This document shows positions 1,955 through 10,924 of a DNA stretch of 13,173 nt, piece after piece. The stretch is taken from IMG/VR virus record IMGVR_UViG_638341082_000004. One strand, 5' to 3'. Under the pieces are notes generated by a model. That model worked only from the letters and a program-made list of their open reading frames with translations, searched no databases and was not told the DNA's origin. The stretch is from a virus (Duplodnaviria; Heunggongvirae; Uroviricota; Caudoviricetes). The translations under genes were made by a program, and so were the position numbers. Numbering within the stretch: the first letter of the stretch is position 1; the number at the start of each line of letters is the position of its first letter.

Positions 1955-2200
1955 CTAAATCAGTAAGTTGGCAGCATCACCTACTTTCTGCTCTCTGGAA
2001 ACGCCTGCTTCTTTTTTACCTGAGAGCATTTTTTCGCATTCTGATTTCGTTAGTTTAGATTTTGAATATCTTGTCCAGTTAGTAGGAGTGCCACCTTCCT
2101 TTTCAATAGTGGCGGTAATTTTATACATGAACACCTCCATTATTATTTCCAGTGGTTCGTTTATTCCATCTTTCGAGTGCTTCTTTTTCACTTCCACCAT
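1955..2200 (-). pseudogene. ydaC: ydaC-like small prophage gene, 3' end truncated by IS1 (last ~8 codons and stop are IS1-derived)
   Basis: Minus-strand ORF (...MYKITATIEKEGGTPTNWTRYSKSKLTKSECEKMLSGKKEAGVSREQKVG) runs into the IS1 IRL at 1981. Position between ralR and int matches ydaC in Rac. Real start is probably an internal ATG (2140 or 2128). Identity is by synteny and partial recall only. Confidence 0.45.
1959..1981. repeat. IS1 left terminal inverted repeat (IRL)
   Basis: Reverse complement of GGTGATGCTGCCAACTTACTGAT read in the window. Confidence 0.85.
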
Positions 2201-2371: not shown

Positions 2372-3181
2372 TTATTCCTCTGAATTATCGATTACACTGT
2401 ATTCCCCGGTTAATACAGAGGAATCTGCAGGATCGATTGTCAGTGGTTCCTTTTCATCCATTGATACTGCACGCTGGATCTCAATTGATACGGGCAGATA
2501 TTTGAACAGGCGACGAATAGCCGTTTTCTTTGCCATTTCTTCCCAGTGAGTTACCCACGGCCCGTTATTACCAGCTTTACTCAGGCTGCGCACCAGCTCA
2601 ATCTGTTTGCGCGTCATAACTTCAAACTGAGTACCTCCGTCTTTCAGTCTTGCGACAGCATAGACGTGGGTAACCGGGGCATCTTCGTTTTCTCCCGGGC
2701 GGTGTATTAACTTTTCATCAAGGCCAAATTCGAAGCTAAACTCGTCACCTTCACGGACAACACGGGCTGACAGGCTGGCGATTTGACCAGAACGGCGAGC
2801 CAGATCAATCATGCCGCGATAGCCAATGATTAGCTGAACGTTCTTTTTACCGCTCTTTTCGTTTTTATTACCAAAAGGCAGTAAATATGCATGACCGAGG
2901 GCGCTACCTGGCTCAAGTCCGAGCTGTGAACACTGTACGATCGCACTGACAAAACTCATAGTGTCACAGTTTCCTAACGCCGGAACTTTACGAATTTCTG
3001 TAGTGGCGATACGGATCATACGTTCAGCCGTCATATGGCGTGGAAGAGCTGCTGCCAGTTGCTCTTTCATTGATGGCTGGTTAATAAAACTAATCACGTC
3101 GCTATTTTTAACTGCTGCTGGTGCACGGTTTCCCTGAGTTTTTTGCAGATCGGCTTTTGCGATTGGTGGTTGCTTAGTCAT
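2372..3181 (-). CDS. recT: Recombinase RecT (single-strand annealing protein)
   Basis: 269-aa product beginning [21 protein letters not shown]... from the ATG at 3181 within track ORF 2372..3238. Overlaps the recE stop by 8 nt. Recognised as Rac RecT. Confidence 0.92.
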
Positions 3182-5774
3182 TTGCATATTCCTTAGCCCA
3201 GCGGGGCAGTGATAATGTCTTAATAGCTGGCCATTCATCGGTATTCAGGCAGTCAGACAGGGTTCGCAGATTGCGGTGATATTCCTGTTGACCTGCCAGT
3301 TTTGCTTCTTCGCCCATCATGAAAATTTCAACCGGATAACGTCCGCATTCAATAGTTGTGCTGGCAACCAGAAAAACGAAAGTTGGCTGCACTCCAAACT
3401 GTGCTTCATAACCGTCACTGTAGAATGCATCCTGAACGTGATAGCGGTAGTCGTAATAAGCGGTTTTGAATCGTTGAATATCCGCCGTAGTTTTCACGTC
3501 CATGATCCAGTGAAATTCAGGGATAATTTTGTCCGGACGGCACCGACACAAAATTCCTGTTTCAGGATCTTCCCAGTAAATTGATGATTCAGCGTGTCCG
3601 GCGCTTTCAACAAGCCATTGCCCCAGCGGCAAAGCCATAACGCTTTGATACATGAGTTCAATTTTCCGGCCTTCTTCCGCAGTGATAACCGTTTTTCCTG
3701 TGCTTGCGCATTCCATCAGAAACGCTTTCTCTTCTTCTTTTCCGGCGTTTGTACGGCGGTTAAATTCAGGTGCTACGATAAAGCGGTTACTGAATTCTTC
3801 CGGTTCAAGTACCCGGCAGTGGAAAGCAGTTCCTAAATCGAGCGTTTTTGTCTTTGTGGTGTCCACGGGGGCATTTTTACGCCACAAATATAGTGCCGGA
3901 GTATCAGCAATGTCATCGAGCTGAGACTTACTGATACCGGGACCCGCGTGGTAATTCTCATTCGAAATTCCGTAATAAATACCTGGCTCTATGTCTTCTA
4001 CGATTACGGGATCTGCGACTTCGCCAGTTTCATCACTGCAATCGTGATGCGGATCGCTGCCAGCATTCTCATTGTGCGGATGTTCAGCGCCTTCCATTTC
4101 CTCCGGATCATTTTCCTTAGCTTCAACCTGACTCTCTTCATCGAATGTTTCCTGGTATGTTGCGTCGCCCATCACCGCACCACAGTCAGGGCAGTTATCC
4201 CCGCCAGTCTGGCCGCAGGCATTGCAGGCTATTTCCGGTTCCTGTTGCACTACTGGCTCAGGTTGATTCATATCTGGGCTGGTTTTTTCCGTTTCTGGCT
4301 GGTTCTGGTACACACAATCGCGAGTCTGGATCCCCTTTACCCATTTCGGATCGTTCGGGTCGCTAATTCCGTCAACAAATTCACCACGTGATGCAGCAAG
4401 CAATTTATCGGCATCGACAGGATTTTTTGATGGAATGTTTTTCCGGGCTTCATGGAGTTCTGCCCGCAGTTCCTGATATTTCGCATCAACAGAATTTACC
4501 TGTGACTGAGCATCCAGCGGCTGCGTGTCCTGATGATGTTCAGTTGCGTCCGGTTCCATTGTTTCAGCCTCTCCCTGTTCAACTGCCGTTGTTCCAGATG
4601 GTTGCGGTTTTTCTTCATCATCCTGTTTTCCTTCTTCTGTTACTCGCTGCGGCATCGGGGCAGAGGAGCGACCGCAGGCAATATCCACGATTTCCGGATC
4701 AGGGTTGGCATGATCGGTTTCAGTCAGTACTTTGTTCAGATATTCAGTGACGTGCGCGGGGATGACCTCGATCCCAATTGGTGCTTCTTTTACGGACGCA
4801 ACCACGATGGCGCGGGAATAATCCAGCCCGCCAGGCATGGTGATGAATTTGTCGCGGAAAACAGAAAAGGGCGGTTTATTTTCAGCGATAATTTCCTCAA
4901 TGCGTTTAGCGTGTGCCGGATGAAGGTTATAGATGTCCAGATCCATTGAACGGGCCAGTACGCCAGTGGCTACGTCGCGCGCCAGTGACGTCAGATCGTG
5001 TACGAAACCTTCGCCGCGATCGGTGAGGTTTCCGCCGCCAGCATTAGCACCGGAAGCCGTGCGAGTGATGTGTGAAACACGATTACCCTTCATCCACTCT
5101 TTTGTCAGCAGTCCTCGATCGGTGTAGTCAGCGTTCAGGTATGCTTCGAAAAAAGCAGTTATCAGTCCCAGGTTTGAATTACCAGGATTAGGGAAAACTT
5201 TGTCAGTGTCACGAACCAGTTTGTGGAGTTCGCGAATTTCCAGCGGGTCGAGCAGGCTGGTTTTGTGGGAAACAGCCAGGGCAGTAACAGCCGGTAGTTC
5301 TTCAGCCCGAGCAATGTGTAATGCCTGGAGTCCGTCGCGTGAAACGTGCGTTACCGGTTTTTCGCTGCCGTGTTGAGCAAGCCAACGAATGGGCAGTTCC
5401 TGGCCAGAAATTGGGATTAGCATATTCTCCTCAATCTCAGTCATGTCTTCGCCGTTGACGTTGGTATTGCCTTGATAATGAGCGTTGTCTGGTGCTGCTC
5501 CCGGTTTTAGTTCCCATGTCATGGAGTCTTTGCTGAGTTGATAGCGTTCACTCCAGGTAAAATCGATCTCACCTTCAGCGGGCAGGTCATTAACGACAGG
5601 AAAATTCGTGGCAACAGCTTTAAAATAGCTGCTCAGTTTTTTACCTGACTTAACGATCAGGTAGTCCAGAGTGGCACAGGTCGATTCAAAATCGTTGCTT
5701 GCCCACAGGACGACGTCAGGTTCACCGGATGATTTTTTCGCTTTCCGTAACAGGAAGAGTGGTTTTGTGCTCAT
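3174..5774 (-). CDS. recE: Exodeoxyribonuclease VIII RecE
   Basis: 866-aa [27 protein letters not shown]...WAKEYAND, full length for RecE, with an acidic central region and C-terminal nuclease domain. SD GAGGT upstream. Confidence 0.93.
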
Positions 5775-5845
5775 TGTTTTTTAACCTCAACTCAGATTAA
5801 AATTCGTTTTGTTCAGTGAATGATCTTGCCGGATACACACTGTTC

Positions 5846-5870
5846 ATAGCCTGCGCCATACGCAGGCTAT
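5846..5870. promoter_or_regulatory. Perfect 10-bp-arm hairpin in the racC-recE intergenic region
   Basis: ATAGCCTGCG-ccata-CGCAGGCTAT read directly, 5 nt after the racC stop and about 70 nt before the recE start. Confidence 0.35.
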
Positions 5871-5875
5871 TTCTT

Positions 5876-6151
5876 TCAGATTTCACCTTTTAATTTCATT
5901 GCAATTAGAGTTGCCAGAAATTCGGCTTTTTTTTCTGCGGGCAGATTCTTTCCGATATGCACCAGGCACATTTTTTTGACACCTTCATCAAGTGTTTTTA
6001 CGTTGCCTGATGGACCATCGATATCAACCACAGTGAATGGGGTTTCTTTATTTTCTGTTTTAATTACGTAGCCAATGCGCTTTCCTTCCAGATTCACCTC
6101 GTGAACAATGTCATCGGTAGTTACAACAGTGGCTTCATAATTGGTAATCAT
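5876..6151 (-). CDS. racC: Rac prophage protein RacC
   Basis: 91-aa product MITNYEATVVTTDDIVHEVNLEGKRIGYVIKTENKETPF... from the internal ATG at 6151, which has a strong SD (AGGAG, 5-nt spacing). The longer 6199 start lacks an SD. Confidence 0.85.
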   Translation of the reverse strand: MITNYEATVVTTDDIVHEVNLEGKRIGYVIKTENKETPFTVVDIDGPSGNVKTLDEGVKKMCLVHIGKNLPAEKKAEFLATLIAMKLKGEI

Positions 6152-6225
6152 GTTTTTCTCCTTAATTAAGGTTGAGCGAATACCTGCCATTTCTGGCATA
6201 AATTCAGTTTCGAATAGTCAATTAA

Positions 6226-6396
6226 TTAAAGTTCATGTGCCATCTGGTCTTTTTCGGCACAAGCTTCACTGCAATATTTTCTCGGTTCGTCTTTTGATAA
6301 AATCCCGTGCATGAAGTGAAGCATTCTTTCAATAGCTTTGCTTTCTTCAACGTCTTTTTTGCAAAGGTGGTAAGCACATTTTATTTTCTTAGTCAT
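6226..6396 (-). CDS. ydaE: Small Cys-rich protein YdaE (putative metal-binding)
   Basis: Hand-translated 56-aa ORF, absent from the ORF track (below cutoff): [56 protein letters not shown]. Start ATG overlaps the kilR stop (ATGA). Has CxxxxC and CxxxC pairs. Confidence 0.75.
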   Translation of the reverse strand: MTKKIKCAYHLCKKDVEESKAIERMLHFMHGILSKDEPRKYCSEACAEKDQMAHEL

Positions 6397-6617
6397 CACC
6401 ATGACTCCGCCTTTACAGGTAAACCATCACGACCGAGGAAGACTTTAATCATGCGGTCAGTAATGCATGTTTTTGTGGTCAGGTTACGAATATATAGTTT
6501 TCGCTTTTTAATATTGTTTGCCGAGGCAATATATGTCCGGCCTTCATGAAGAACATAATCGCCAGGAGTCACACACTGACGTGGTATTTCATCAGTTCCG
6601 AAGTGATGTGCAATCAT
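6396..6617 (-). CDS. kilR: Cell-division inhibitor KilR
   Basis: 73-aa product [46 protein letters not shown]... from the internal ATG at 6617 with SD GGAG upstream. Recognised as Rac KilR. Confidence 0.85.
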
Positions 6618-7058
6618 AATTATCTCCATTTTTACAAATGAACTTTGTTGATGCGGTGCCTGGTGCCTCCAGGTGACTGCAACCAGTTAACAATTACAGT
6701 CGGCTTTCCCACCCAAACCAATAAGGACTAACATGACTTTTAACTGTGCCACGTGCGCTTAGCCGCATTCACCGCATCACAAAATTCACTTTAAAAAGGG
6801 CGGACATCAGCCGAACTTCAAGAAAAAAACTGATGCCGCCAGGACTACACACAGCAATGTCGTTATTTACAACCGGAGGCGCACTCCCACCATTTAAATT
6901 TAACAGACAAGACCGACTCTTTATGGATATCGGAAATGCGCCTTCGTGTTGTGCCCGGTTTTATTTCACCACCTCCGGACTTCGGTGGTCTCGGCTATAC
7001 CCCTACAGCGAGAGCTTGTGTTAACATTTCAATACCCTTACAGTTGAGAGTTATTGAT

Positions 7059-7547
7059 ATGTTGGATGTATTTACTCCATTGTTGAAACTTTTTGCTAAC
7101 GAGCCACTCGAAAGACTTATGTATACGATTATCATTTTTGGTCTCACTCTCTGGCTGATACCGAAAGAGTTTACTGCCGCATTCAATGCTTATACTGAAA
7201 TACCTTGGCTCTTTCAGATTATCGTTTTTGCCTTTTCTTTCGTGGTCGCCATTTCCTTCTCAAGATTGCGAGCACATATTCAAAAGCATTATTCATTACT
7301 ACCAGAGCAACGAGTATTGCTTCGTTTATCTGAGAAAGAAATCGCTGTATTTAAAGATTTCCTTAAAACAGGAAATCTTATTATCACTTCTCCTTGCCGT
7401 AACCCGGTTATGAAAAAATTAGAACGGAAGGGCATCATTCAACATCAGAGTGATAGCGCAAACTGTTCTTATTATCTCGTCACCGAAAAATACTCCCATT
7501 TTATGAAGTTATTCTGGAACAGCAGGAGTAGACGTTTTAATCGTTAG
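7059..7547 (+). CDS. sieB: Superinfection exclusion protein B
   Basis: 162-aa product MLDVFTPLLKLFANEPLERLMYTIIIFGLTLWLIP... with predicted N-terminal membrane helices, starting at the internal ATG 7059 of track ORF 6936..7547. Confidence 0.85.
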   Translation: MLDVFTPLLKLFANEPLERLMYTIIIFGLTLWLIPKEFTAAFNAYTEIPWLFQIIVFAFSFVVAISFSRLRAHIQKHYSLLPEQRVLLRLSEKEIAVFKDFLKTGNLIITSPCRNPVMKKLERKGIIQHQSDSANCSYYLVTEKYSHFMKLFWNSRSRRFNR

Positions 7548-7699
7548 CTTACTGTGTGCTTCTCCAACCATCGGCGCGCACCAGTTTCGGTTTTAAATGT
7601 TTTGCTTTTGGTATACGTCATGGCAGTGAACGTTCCATCCTGGTTGGGGAACACGCCGCACACCAGGGATTCGTTGTTGCCGAGGTCGATTTTTTGCAT
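7544..7699 (-). CDS. ydaF: Small prophage protein YdaF
   Basis: Hand-translated 51-aa ORF not in the track: MQKIDLGNNESLVCGVFPNQDGTFTAMTYTKSKTFKTETGARRWLEKHTVS. Its 3' end overlaps the convergent sieB stop by 4 nt. Confidence 0.7.
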   Translation of the reverse strand: MQKIDLGNNESLVCGVFPNQDGTFTAMTYTKSKTFKTETGARRWLEKHTVS

Positions 7700-7709
7700 T
7701 TTGCGAATC

Positions 7710-7844
7710 TCACATCTTGTTGCTACGTATAGCGACTTCTGCCTGCCAGAGATCCCAGTCGTTGCTGCGTAAAGCCTGCACAGCCTGGTTGTAAGTGATA
7801 CCGCAACAATCCATCAAATACTGAACTACTTCGTAATGCACCAT
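7710..7844 (-). CDS. ydaG: Small prophage protein YdaG
   Basis: Hand-translated 44-aa ORF not in the track: MVHYEVVQYLMDCCGITYNQAVQALRSNDWDLWQAEVAIRSNKM. Confidence 0.7.
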   Translation of the reverse strand: MVHYEVVQYLMDCCGITYNQAVQALRSNDWDLWQAEVAIRSNKM

Positions 7845-7989
7845 CTTATCTATCCCCTTAACGCCGGGTGGCGGAACTAACTGCTGCACTGCAAAATTTG
7901 AATCCCGCCGTCATGTTCATACGCCTCGGGCTGGCTACTTAACCCCTGACCACTGCCTGGTAACTCGAAGTATTGCCCGGCGTTCTGTG

Positions 7990-8060
7990 GGGCGGGGTGG
8001 GTTGGTAGGTATATAATGTACTTTGTGTTCATCATTGTAAAGTACTTTAAGTACATTTTA
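7990..8060 (-). promoter_or_regulatory. Candidate leftward early promoter/operator (PL/OL-like) upstream of ydaG
   Basis: AT-rich segment with palindrome GTACTTTAAGTAC (8042-8054) and ATGTACT motifs. On the minus strand TTACAA-17bp-ATTATA resembles -35/-10. Inference only. Confidence 0.35.
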
Positions 8061-8132
8061 TGTATAAAAAAAATGAGACGGGATAAAGTGAAGCACAAAC
8101 CCGGAGGGGGACGCTACCGGATTTATGCTGGT

Positions 8133-8552
8133 TTAAGAGGCTTTTTGTTTTTTCTTTCGTGCTAACTCTTCGTAAATTGCATTGTACTTCTGTTTTTTCT
8201 CCTCAAGAGTTTTTAAAAGTTCATCTGTCTCACTGTCAGGGAGCTCGTCCAGAAGGTCAATGATGATTTTTTGTCTTGGATTTAACTCCTGATAGAAACG
8301 TATCTGTCCACTTTCTTCTGTATCCTCTCCCAAAAGATAGGTTGGTGTTGTTCCAATGAGTGTTGCTAATTCCCTTAATTTCTCTCGGCGAGGAATTGTT
8401 TCACCATTAAACCATTTGCTAACCGCTTTTGGTGTTAATTTCATTCGACGGGCAATTTCTGCCTGCCTTCCATGTTGTTCATAACCAGCGTTTTCACAGG
8501 CTAGCGCAAGCCTACTGGCGAACTCTTTACGCGCTTTATCTTCATGAACCAT
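8133..8552 (-). CDS. racR: Rac prophage repressor RacR (CI-like HTH regulator)
   Basis: 139-aa ORF MVHEDKARKEFASRLALACENAGYEQHGRQAEIARRMKLTPKAVSKWFNGETIPRREKL... with an HTH (Xre-type) N-terminal domain, divergent from ydaS. Confidence 0.85.
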   Translation of the reverse strand: MVHEDKARKEFASRLALACENAGYEQHGRQAEIARRMKLTPKAVSKWFNGETIPRREKLRELATLIGTTPTYLLGEDTEESGQIRFYQELNPRQKIIIDLLDELPDSETDELLKTLEEKKQKYNAIYEELARKKKQKAS

Positions 8553-8631
8553 AAGTTCAATGATATTCGCTCTTGAATGTACTGTCAGTTCTGTTATAGC
8601 ATGTACTCAAAGTTCACATTGTGAGGGTGAT
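8553..8631. promoter_or_regulatory. Divergent racR/ydaS promoter-operator region (OR-like)
   Basis: 79-bp gap between divergent starts. TTGAAT (8573-8578) then TATAGC 16 bp later for ydaS; CTGACA-17bp-TATCAT on the minus strand for racR. ATGTACT occurs twice (8577-8583, 8601-8607). Confidence 0.5.
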
Positions 8632-8886
8632 ATGAACCAGAAAACACTTGAAGATGTAATCAAAACTGTTCGCGTTTCTGTTGTGGCCGACGTTTGTGGT
8701 GTCAGCCAAAGAGCAATCTACAAATGGATGGATAACGGAAAATTGCCTCGCACAGAATATACCGGCGAAACAAATTACGCTGAAAAAATCGCTCATGCAT
8801 CAAACGGATTATTTTCTGCCGATGCAATTTTAACTATTGGCAGAAATAAAACTACTACGAAAAAGCTGATGGGAGTTGATTCATGA
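8632..8886 (+). CDS. ydaS: Cro-like HTH protein YdaS
   Basis: 84-aa product MNQKTLEDVIKTVRVSVVADVCGVSQRAIYKWMDNGKLP... from ATG 8632 with SD GAGGG 6 nt upstream. The longer track start at 8560 would leave only 7 bp to the divergent racR. Confidence 0.8.
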   Translation: MNQKTLEDVIKTVRVSVVADVCGVSQRAIYKWMDNGKLPRTEYTGETNYAEKIAHASNGLFSADAILTIGRNKTTTKKLMGVDS

Positions 8887-9305
8887 AAATCAAGCATGAG
8901 CACATCGAATCAGTGTTGTTAGCCCTGGCAGCCGAAAAAGGGCAGGCGTGGGTCGCTAACGCAATTACTGAAGAATATCTGCGCCAGGGGGGCGGCGAAT
9001 TGCCCCTGGTACCAGGCAAGGACTGGAACAATCAGCAGAATATCTATCATCGTTGGTTGAAAGGTGAAACGAATGCGCAAAGGGAAAAAATTCAGAAACT
9101 GATCCCTGCGGTTCTGGCAATTCTTCCTCGCGAGCTGCGTCACCGACTCTGCATCTTCGATACCCTGGAACGCCGTGCATTACTGGCGGCACAGGATGCA
9201 CTGAGTACGGCAATTGATGCGCATGATGATGCAGTCCAGGCCGTTTACCGTAAAGCACATTTCAGCGGCGGCGGTTCTCCTAGCGATTCTGTCGTAGTGC
9301 ATTGA
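8883..9305 (+). CDS. ydaT: Rac prophage protein YdaT (CII-like/toxic when derepressed)
   Basis: 140-aa ORF MKIKHEHIESVLLALAAEKGQAWVANAITEEYLRQGG... with start overlapping the ydaS stop (ATGA). Confidence 0.85.
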   Translation: MKIKHEHIESVLLALAAEKGQAWVANAITEEYLRQGGGELPLVPGKDWNNQQNIYHRWLKGETNAQREKIQKLIPAVLAILPRELRHRLCIFDTLERRALLAAQDALSTAIDAHDDAVQAVYRKAHFSGGGSPSDSVVVH

Positions 9306-9318
9306 TTGAAATTAATCG

Positions 9319-9340
9319 TACCGAACTGTTTTGTTCGGTA
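9319..9340. other. Perfect 8-bp-arm hairpin between ydaT and ydaU
   Basis: TACCGAAC-tgtttt-GTTCGGTA read directly; no downstream U-tract. Confidence 0.4.
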
Positions 9341-9350
9341 TCAGTTAAAT

Positions 9351-9369
9351 GTAACGCTGCGAGCGTTAC
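9351..9369. repeat. Iteron-like palindrome GTAACGCT-gcg-AGCGTTAC (copy 1)
   Basis: Perfect 8-bp arms with 3-bp spacer, 14 bp upstream of the ydaU start. Confidence 0.55.
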
Positions 9370-9382
9370 AAGGTGAAAACAA

Positions 9383-10171
9383 ATGGCTTCAAACTGGATA
9401 AAGCTCGAAGTTATTACGCCGGATAAGCCGGAAATATTCAGGCTTGCTGAGATTCTGAATATTGATCCAGATGCCGCATTAGGGAAAGTCATTCGCTTCT
9501 GGGCATGGGCGGATCAACAAATGATAGACGGTAACGCAGAGTGTAACGCTCGCGGCGTTACAAAAAGTGCAATAGATCGCATCACTTTTATGGCTGGTTT
9601 TGCTGATGCGTTAATTCAGGTTGGATGGCTGGTCGAAACTAATGGTGTGTTGTCGCTTCCTAACTTTGAGCGCCATAACGGGAAAAGCTCTAAAAAACGG
9701 GCGGTTACAAACGAGAGAGTAACAAAAATACGAGAACTGAAACGAAAAGGTAACGCTGCCAGCGTTACAAAAACGGATCAAAAAGCGTTACCAGAGGAAG
9801 AGAAAGAGGAAGATATAAATACTTATCTCCCCCTAAATCCCCCTCGCCAAAAACGAGCGTCTAAAAAATTCGAACCGGAGGCTATCGAGCTGCCTGACTG
9901 GTTGCCGGAAACACTCTGGCATGAGTGGGTTCAGTTCAGGCAGGCATTGCGAAAACCGATTCGAACGGAGCAGGGCGCTAACGGGGCGATACGGGAGCTG
10001 GAAAAATTCCGCCAGCAGGGTTTTTCACCTGAGCAGGTGATTCGACACAGCATCGCCAACGAATACCAGGGCTTGTTCGCGCCGAAAGGTGTTCGACCTG
10101 AGACGTTACTCCGACAGGTTAACACCGTCTCGTTACCGGATAGTGCGATCCCGCCAGGCTTCAGGGGGTAA
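9383..10171 (+). CDS. ydaU: Putative replication initiation protein YdaU (lambda O-like position)
   Basis: 262-aa ORF MASNWIKLEVITPDKPEIFRLAEILNIDPDAALGKVIRFWAWADQQ... with SD AGGTG 7 nt upstream. It precedes the DnaC-like ydaV and contains iteron-like repeats. Confidence 0.85.
   Translation: MASNWIKLEVITPDKPEIFRLAEILNIDPDAALGKVIRFWAWADQQMIDGNAECNARGVTKSAIDRITFMAGFADALIQVGWLVETNGVLSLPNFERHNGKSSKKRAVTNERVTKIRELKRKGNAASVTKTDQKALPEEEKEEDINTYLPLNPPRQKRASKKFEPEAIELPDWLPETLWHEWVQFRQALRKPIRTEQGANGAIRELEKFRQQGFSPEQVIRHSIANEYQGLFAPKGVRPETLLRQVNTVSLPDSAIPPGFRG
9543..9561. repeat. Iteron-like palindrome GTAACGCT-cgc-GGCGTTAC (copy 2)
   Basis: Same motif as 9351-9369 with one arm mismatch, inside ydaU. 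Confidence 0.5.
9750..9768. repeat. Iteron-like palindrome GTAACGCT-gcc-AGCGTTAC (copy 3)
   Basis: Perfect arms, inside ydaU. Preceded by half-sites GGTTACAAA (9702-9710) and GTAACAAAAA (9719-9728) in an A-rich stretch. Confidence 0.5.
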
Positions 10172-10177
10172 CTGACC

Positions 10178-10924
10178 ATGAAAAATATTGCGACAGGCGA
10201 CGTTCTTGAACGTATCCGCAGACTGGCCCCGTCACATGTAACCGCGCCATTCAAGACGGTAGCGGAGTGGCGCGAGTGGCAACTTTCCGAAGGCCAGAAA
10301 CGTTGTGAGGAGATCAACCGTCAGAATCGTCAGTTGCGGGTGGAAAAAATTCTGAATCGCTCTGGCATCCAGCCATTGCACCGCAAATGCTCGTTTTCGA
10401 ATTACCAGGTGCAGAACGAAGGGCAGCGATACGCGTTGAGTCAGGCGAAATCCATCGCTGATGAACTGATGACCGGGTGTACAAATTTTGCGTTCAGCGG
10501 AAAACCTGGTACCGGGAAGAATCACTTAGCGGCAGCTATCGGGAATCGCCTGCTGAAAGACGGTCAGACAGTGATTGTGGTTACCGTGGCTGATGTTATG
10601 AGTGCCCTCCACGCCAGCTATGACGACGGGCAGTCAGGCGAAAAATTTTTGCGGGAACTGTGCGAAGTGGATCTGCTGGTTCTTGATGAAATTGGCATTC
10701 AGCGCGAGACGAAAAACGAGCAGGTGGTACTGCACCAGATTATTGATCGACGGACAGCGTCGATGCGTAGCGTGGGAATGCTGACAAACCTGAACTATGA
10801 GGCCATGAAAACATTGCTCGGCGAGCGGATTATGGATCGCATGACCATGAACGGCGGGCGATGGGTGAATTTTAACTGGGAGAGCTGGCGTCCGAATGTC
10901 GTCCAGCCAGGAATTGCGAAGTAA
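10178..10924 (+). CDS. ydaV: DnaC/IstB-like AAA+ helicase loader YdaV (lambda P analogue)
   Basis: 248-aa ORF with Walker A ([15 protein letters not shown]) and Walker B (DLLVLDEIG). SD AGGGGG upstream; begins 6 nt after the ydaU stop. Confidence 0.88.

Follow-up and report, generated by a model that had tools for sequence, protein, structure and literature searches.

The stretch of DNA analysed here over its whole length of 13,173 bp (hereafter the window; IMG/VR record IMGVR_UViG_638341082_000004) covers a Rac-type prophage, in which intR, xisR, ralR, recT, recE, kilR, sieB, ydaF and ydaG are followed by an immunity region and by ydaT, ydaU and ydaV. The word ATGTACT was found to recur in the two intergenic regions on either side of the repressor gene of this immunity region. 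These two clusters are interpreted, with a probability of roughly 0.85, as the left (OL) and right (OR) operators of a lambdoid immunity switch of the HK022/933W type, carried on a swapped cassette at positions 8008-8876. Such operator sets, flanking the repressor gene and lying over divergent early promoters in the manner of lambda OL and OR, had been proposed in an original prediction made from the same DNA, and that part of the proposal is borne out by the comparisons described below.

ATGTACT was identified four times in the window, on the plus strand at 8016-8022, 8577-8583 and 8601-8607 and on the minus strand at 8050-8056, with every copy inside one of the two regions. The plus-strand positions, together with those of AAGTACT (8040-8046) and of the palindrome GTACTTTAAGTAC (8042-8054, with 6-bp arms around one central base), agreed on re-reading of the sequence with those first given. 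Approximately 1.08 copies of ATGTACT are expected in the window and four were reached by 5 of 200 shuffled sequences; by itself, the count of the 7-mer is modestly unusual. The extended motif GTACTNNNWGTWC is decisive, as its four sites were located solely in the two regions; 0.06 are expected, and none of 200 shuffled sequences reached this number. The symmetric core GWACNNNNNGTWC was found at five sites, again all in the two regions (0.55 expected; 0 of 200 shuffles). The fifth of these, at 8546-8558 and thus at the repressor start codon, had been overlooked because its left half reads GAAC rather than GTAC, and the right cluster consequently consists of three sites and not of the two first described. 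A repeat finder run independently also grouped OL1 with OL2 (at 24-bp spacing), OL1 with OR1 and OL1 with OR2 as repeat families. ATGTACT itself is the left half-site with its flanking A of a quasi-palindrome of 15-17 bp, a-TGWAC-N5-GTWCA-t; the recurrence of the word is confirmed.

The five sites were compared to the operators of the HK022 record X16093 (Oberto et al. 1989), which lists TGTACTTAAAGTTCA and AGTACCAATAGTACA for oL and TGAACCATAAGTTCA, TGTACTATCAGTTCC and TGAACCATAAGTTCA for oR. In the left region, OL1 (8017-8031, TGTACTTTGTGTTCA) lies between the -10 and -35 hexamers of a leftward promoter (PL) and aligns without a gap with HK022 oL at 2201-2215, while OL2 (8041-8055, AGTACTTTAAGTACA) abuts the PL -35 and corresponds to oL at 2225-2239. 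In the right region, OR3 (8545-8559, TGAACCATAAGTTCA) lies over the repressor start codon (8550-8552) and is identical base for base to HK022 oR at 3000-3014. OR2 (8578-8592, TGTACTGTCAGTTCT) is situated in the spacer of a rightward promoter (PR) and over the -35 of the repressor-gene promoter (PRM), with its counterpart at oR 3033-3047, and OR1 (8602-8616, TGTACTCAAAGTTCA), which shows 0 mismatches to the consensus, covers the edge of the PR -10 and the transcription start, with its counterpart at oR 3057-3071. The spacing of 24 bp between OL1 and OL2 and of 33 and 24 bp within OR (OR3 at 0, then +33 and +57) is the same as in HK022, as are the operator consensus, the register of the promoter hexamers and the position of the repressor start codon within OR3.

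Three promoter-like elements were placed relative to these sites. The PL-like promoter (8013-8041, minus strand) was called by a promoter scan, with a -35 of TTTACA at 8041-8036, a 17-bp spacer and a -10 of CATTAT at 8018-8013; its register is that of the pL -35 and -10 annotated in X16093 and also found in O276 and HK75, and it is predicted to drive ydaG-ydaF and the genes beyond. The PR-like promoter (8573-8602, plus strand) has a -35 of TTGAAT at 8573-8578 and a -10 of either TATAGC at 8595-8600, preceded by TG, or TAGCAT at 8597-8602, in a register that matches the HK022 pR (-35 at 3028-3033, -10 at 3050-3055). The placement of the ATGTACT copies relative to its -35 and -10 is as had been predicted. 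The PRM-like promoter (8560-8588, minus strand) was called by the scan with 10 of 12 matches (-35 CTGACA at 8588-8583, -10 TATCAT at 8565-8560), and its TATnnT -10 lies in the same register in the Klebsiella, Salmonella and HK022 relatives. As the start codon of the repressor gene follows this -10 at a distance of 7 nt, the repressor mRNA is probably leaderless, with its start at or next to the ATG at 8552. Leaderless repressor mRNAs have been described for lambda cI, paaR2 and racR (PMC8630535; PMC9638921). The scan gave no reverse (PRE-like) promoter within cro.

Both regulatory proteins encoded between and beside the operators were found to be homologous to those of HK022. The CI-type repressor (8133-8552, minus strand) consists of 139 residues, with a helix-turn-helix (HTH) N-terminal domain (Pfam HTH_3, 1.8e-9) and a 37-residue helical tail, and shares 46% identity with HK022 CI over residues 4-102 (E-value 9e-32). 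The gene on the other side of OR (8632-8886, plus strand), for which RefSeq gives the same start, encodes a Cro-type regulator of 84 residues that is 62% identical over 73 residues to the Cro of HK022 (E-value 1e-34). RefSeq labels the 139-residue protein as a helix-turn-helix domain-containing protein and nothing more. A sequence search against the Protein Data Bank gave a weak match of the repressor to the P22 c2 N-terminal domain and none for Cro.

Phylogenetic footprinting, proposed in the original prediction as a check, was performed on a stack of 11 elements: the window, phage Tritos, an 89%-identical E. coli relative, two Salmonella prophages with short repressors of 62-65% identity, two Klebsiella phages, the Citrobacter phage Omnitron, the Salmonella phage S9-5, HK022 and HK75. 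The diverged relatives were taken from a phage collection and a protein search, and a twelfth element with the same sites, O276, was excluded from the matrix. With repressors ranging from 46 to 100% identity and with Escherichia, Salmonella, Klebsiella and Citrobacter represented, the OR and OL regions were found to stack without any gap. The half-site cores and the promoter hexamers are conserved, the central bases vary, and OR3 is kept in all 11 elements. From 34 unique sites, a matrix was derived that reads a-T-G-W-A-C-y-w-w-w-r-G-T-W-C-A-t, with G at -6, A at -4 and C at -3 invariant and A or T at -5; ATGTACT occupies positions -8 to -2 of this matrix.

Sequence variation within the cassette was examined at 81 loci, consisting of 80 viral-contig loci obtained with a repressor scan (99-100% identity) and one near-identical genome-contig locus. 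Across the OL region (8000-8070), common polymorphisms affected 17 of the 51 columns outside the operator cores and none of the 20 core columns (Fisher p = 0.0017). In the OR region, 1 of 20 core columns was variable against 10 of 53 other columns, a sparse, hand-counted difference that is not significant by estimate.

The positions conserved in the matrix are those that set affinity in the 933W system. For the 933W repressor, the Koudelka laboratory has attributed affinity to the G, A/T, A and C at positions 2-5 of the operator and to the T/C at position 6, with recognition-helix contacts made by S41, K42 and K46 (PMC3317979); K42 and K46 are present in the repressor of the window, where the recognition-helix residues T40-P41-K42-A43 and S45-E51 are invariant in 17 relatives. 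Phages 933W and phi24B resemble the window in having a 15-bp operator with the core G-(A/T)-A-C-(T/C), OR sites (TGAACCATGAGTACG, AAACTTTCAGTTCA and CGTACTGAAAGTACG) of almost identical arrangement and, in the 933W-type CI of phi24B, 51% identity over residues 1-73 of the repressor. They differ in the outermost operator positions (C/G in 933W, T/A in the window), in residue 41 of the recognition helix (serine in 933W, proline in the window) and in the S24 domain carried by 933W CI. HK022 likewise differs from the window in several respects. Its CI is a 235-residue protein with an S24 autocleavage domain, as opposed to 139 residues and a helical tail; it possesses a third left operator (OL3) and a far-right operator (OFR), neither of which was found in the window; cII rather than ydaT lies downstream; and its OL and OR are 799 bp apart, compared to 528 bp in the window. 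DNA similarity to HK022 is limited to 8012-8070 and 8392-8802, and the HK022 elements nun and put were not seen in the window. Judged from sequence, the cassette is of the HK022/933W type in operator sequence, layout, repressor head and Cro, and departs from that type in OL3, OFR and the S24 domain. Nothing relevant was returned by full-text searches of the literature on the OR3 sequence itself, on Rac together with HK022 and on phage Tritos.

By analogy with these relatives, a dimer of the neighbouring 139-residue repressor would presumably bind each operator through its helix-turn-helix. Occupation of OR1 and OR2, 24 bp apart over the rightward promoter, would switch off cro, ydaT and the replication genes, and occupation of OL1 and OL2, with the same spacing over the leftward promoter, would switch off ydaG, ydaF, kilR, recET, xis and int. 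OR3, over the start of the probably leaderless repressor gene, could serve for self-limitation of the repressor or for its shut-off by the Cro homologue, which would be expected to read the same sites.

Several points weigh against an HK022/933W-type switch that works in this way. Repressor binding at such sites has been demonstrated for the relatives HK022 and 933W, and binding by the 139-residue protein, like its order of site filling, cooperativity and OL-OR looping, would follow from the analogy. No site with up to 3 mismatches was found in 8056-8544 or in 8617-10790, where OL3 and OFR would be looked for; in HK022, HK75, O276, S9-5, Omnitron and a Klebsiella phage, OL3 lies 53 bp from OL2 and OFR lies after cro. 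PR was not called by the simple promoter scan, so that its -10 is assigned by register with HK022, and this -10 is weaker than that of HK022. OR2 overlaps the predicted PRM -35, which puts in question a self-activation by the repressor in the style of lambda CI. In lambda, the S24 C-terminal domain mediates cooperativity between dimers, and since the repressor of the window is without this domain, pairwise cooperativity and looping are not to be assumed for it. In favour of such a switch, PMC8053113 (citing Carlson & Little 1993) describes for HK022 CI cooperative binding at adjacent OL and OR sites, OL3, a far-right operator and OL-OR looping. For the 933W repressor, a lack of cooperative binding at adjacent sites is reported in the abstract of PMC3317979; behaviour therefore differs within the HK022/933W family itself.

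The short form of the repressor was investigated further. Pfam gave helix-turn-helix families only, with no S24 peptidase domain, and neither the Ala-Gly cleavage site nor the Ser/Lys dyad that characterizes S24 proteins was found. Full-length relatives of 235-236 residues possess the AGPG cleavage site and the S24 Ser/Lys motifs. The repressor tracks these relatives as far as IDLLD (residue 102) and diverges ahead of the AGPG site, continuing with ELPDSETDELLKTLEEKKQKYNAIYEELARKKKQKAS. The resulting tail (residues 103-139, encoded at 8133-8246) is charged and conserved. An AlphaFold2 model (mean predicted local distance difference test score of 83) is all-helical: a head of five helices is followed by two short ones and by a terminal helix of 33 residues (106-138). 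A Foldseek search matched the helix-turn-helix domain only, with no structural relative of the tail. As HK022 DNA similarity is found only in 8012-8070 and 8392-8802, the interval 8071-8391 between them is a replacement, by which OL3 was also removed. These features suggest an HK022-type switch uncoupled from the SOS response, in which the DNA-reading head was kept, the S24 domain was swapped for a conserved 37-residue helix and the operator set was reduced to five, a proposal that is put forward tentatively and regarded as rather less than an even chance. To this proposal belongs the possibility that strains with the cassette are also immune to HK022-like phages, given that OR3 is identical to both OR1 and OR3 of HK022. 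A LexA box upstream of the KilA-N gene in locus L001 was not seen on inspection by eye, no formal search having been made.

The same features raise the alternative that the cassette is a relic, its HK022-like operators being inherited and no longer held by a truncated repressor, with silencing exerted elsewhere or the sites serving mainly for Cro. The lack of an S24 domain, the loss of OL3 and OFR and the membership of the prophage in a family, Rac, whose K-12 member is cryptic are all in keeping with this. Selection on the repressor gene is not: the ratio of nonsynonymous to synonymous substitution rates (dN/dS) was 0.07-0.17 for the whole gene and 0.03-0.09 for the tail, indicating strong purifying selection that includes the tail. 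Furthermore, the Salmonella homologues retain the short form and its tail at 62-65% identity with all five operators in register, and polymorphism spares the operator cores. Of 5426 complete E. coli genomes, moreover, 1047 (approximately 19%) were found to carry the cassette (8010-8880), O157:H7 and O104:H4 strains among them, and it also occurs in entries submitted as genomes of phages, that of Tritos for example. The vB_EcoS 'phages' with this repressor were not counted as proof of an active phage, as they stem from work on phages located in clinical isolates. Set against this evidence, a relic is considered improbable.

A second alternative, and the one to which the original prediction leaned, is that the sites are operators of a K-12-type RacR (and YdaS) that represses a toxic ydaS/ydaT module. 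In its favour, the cassette occupies the equivalent position in the prophage, between ydaG and ydaT, and K-12 Rac shows the same layout, with repeated sites on both sides of racR. The likeness to the K-12 racR-ydaS-ydaT module extends to the prophage backbone, with 99.8% identity over 2388-8007 and 92.5% over 8877-9303, to YdaT (94%), to a YdaT-box at the start of ydaT, to a divergent region with three sites, the third of which covers the start codon of the repressor gene, and to a leaderless repressor mRNA (PMC5700373, PMC9638921, PMC11879457). Between those two blocks, no K-12 similarity was found in 8008-8876, which is the cassette delimited by DNA comparison with K-12 Rac and HK022 and comprises OL with PL, the repressor gene, OR and cro. 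The repressor matches K-12 RacR over no more than 33 HTH residues (36% identity), and the repressor and the protein in the position of Cro are both unrelated to their K-12 counterparts. The racR-ydaS intergenic region of K-12 contains three footprinted RacR operators, (T/A)TAGGC-N3-GCCTA(T/A) (PMC9638921). This motif gave six clustered hits in K-12 Rac, but in the window it gave two weak, unclustered hits against 3.3 expected, neither of them intergenic.

An identity with K-12 RacR operators was thus rejected at the level of DNA and protein comparison, and it is given very little weight. As the repressor, the cassette DNA and the operator motif are all not of the K-12 type, the repression of ydaS/ydaT by RacR that had been invoked as established does not transfer to the window; the labels racR and ydaS are right in position only, the latter having been given to the Cro-type gene.

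Both intergenic regions are AT-rich, and a short AT-rich word could in principle recur in them by chance. This explanation, to which the 7-mer count alone (four copies in 5 of 200 shuffles) would leave some room, is scarcely credible and was rejected on the extended-motif shuffles, the HK022-identical spacing and the gapless conservation over four genera.

The comparison with K-12 also revealed a feature of its own Rac prophage. Two RacR-type sites, TAGGTAATGCCTA and TAGGCTATGCCTA, were found 25 bp apart in the K-12 MG1655 locus (L002, 5631-5668), to the left of racR and upstream of ydaG, with four further hits at 6236-6335, distributed over the start of racR and the racR-ydaS region. The pair upstream of ydaG looks like an equivalent of OL. 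In PMC9638921 and PMC5700373, ydaG is nowhere mentioned and binding work is confined to the racR-ydaS intergenic region.

At the right edge of the cassette, ydaT (8883-9305, plus strand; Pfam YdaT_toxin) encodes the CII-like regulator. The YdaT-box (8876-8893, TTGATTCATGAAAATCAA) extends over the stop codon of cro and the start of ydaT, at the point where K-12 homology resumes (8877), and is perfect, with 0 mismatches to TTGATT-N6-AATCAA. For its near-identical K-12 counterpart, ATGATTCATGAAAATCAA, a footprint and the activation of a reverse promoter for racR have been reported (PMC11879457). In the window, the upstream gene and the repressor are unrelated to those of K-12.

Two further systems were compared to the cassette. 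The paaR2-ydaS-ydaT module of CP-933P (E. coli O157:H7, PMC8630535) resembles it in its OL/OR arrangement, its short non-S24 repressor, its leaderless repressor gene and YdaT as CII equivalent, and differs in its operator repeats (consensus GTTTAGTAA) and in the toxin-antitoxin pair after the repressor gene, which the window does not carry. The Salmonella relatives of the cassette share this last feature with CP-933P, as a higB-higA pair was found between the short repressor and OL (L093, 3553-4220; L094, 3588-4255), pushing OL approximately 1.3 kb from OR in a manner resembling paaA2-parE2 of CP-933P. Lambda is similar in the position of its repressor gene between divergent early promoters, its three OR sites and its leaderless cI, and dissimilar in operator sequence and spacing, in possessing three OL sites compared to two in the window, and in the S24 domain of its repressor, which is lacking here.

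A hairpin was identified at 8092-8129 on the minus strand, directly after the repressor stop codon (-19.4 kcal/mol, z = -4.6, 0 of 200 shuffles as good), with stems preserved and loops differing in Tritos and L096. It likely ends the immunity transcript; a terminator role is deduced here rather than evident, as the T-run lies approximately 20 nt off and does not adjoin the stem. The leader between PL and ydaG (7845-8008, minus strand, approximately 160 nt), which is common to K-12 Rac and Tritos, folds barely better than its shuffles (z = -1.8) and therefore provides no evidence for a put-like or nut-like antitermination RNA there. An Rfam scan of the window returned only the RalA antitoxin sRNA next to ralR (1965-2122, plus strand, 170.4 bits, at the gathering threshold), which is expected for Rac and lies far from the operator regions.

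Two small features were observed beside the operators. A palindrome, TCACATTGTGA, at 8613-8623 overlaps the right half of OR1 and reaches the Shine-Dalgarno sequence GAGG of cro; its arms are preserved in L096 (TCACGCTGTGA) and the palindrome is absent from HK022 and from the Klebsiella and Salmonella relatives. The A-run that follows OL2 (8066-8073) consists of eight A in the window compared to seven in Tritos, and this extra A may account for the OL1-OR3 distance of 528 bp in the window as against 527 bp in most related loci.

The type of switch described here is already known from HK022 and 933W immunity, and the cassette adds another case of it, the non-cleavable repressor being the sole feature that a specialist might find unexpected. 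If the switch is indeed uncoupled from the SOS response, a repressor that RecA cannot inactivate would silence the Rac-type prophages in approximately a fifth of E. coli genomes, and any induction of these prophages would require an antirepressor or the dynamics of Cro and YdaT. For the Rac family, the results correct an annotation trap, in that at least two unrelated immunity cassettes exist in Rac-type prophages, each in approximately 20% of complete E. coli genomes (the K-12 racR-ydaS cassette was found in 1085 of the 5426, about equal to the prevalence of the cassette described here), and findings on the toxicity of K-12 RacR/YdaS are not simply transferable to the other cassette type. For a very common and uncharacterised cassette, operators and promoters are now assigned, as predictions, with base precision. 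That this DNA-reading head and these operators occur both with an S24 domain and without one constitutes a natural experiment, which could reveal what cooperativity and SOS coupling contribute to such switches.

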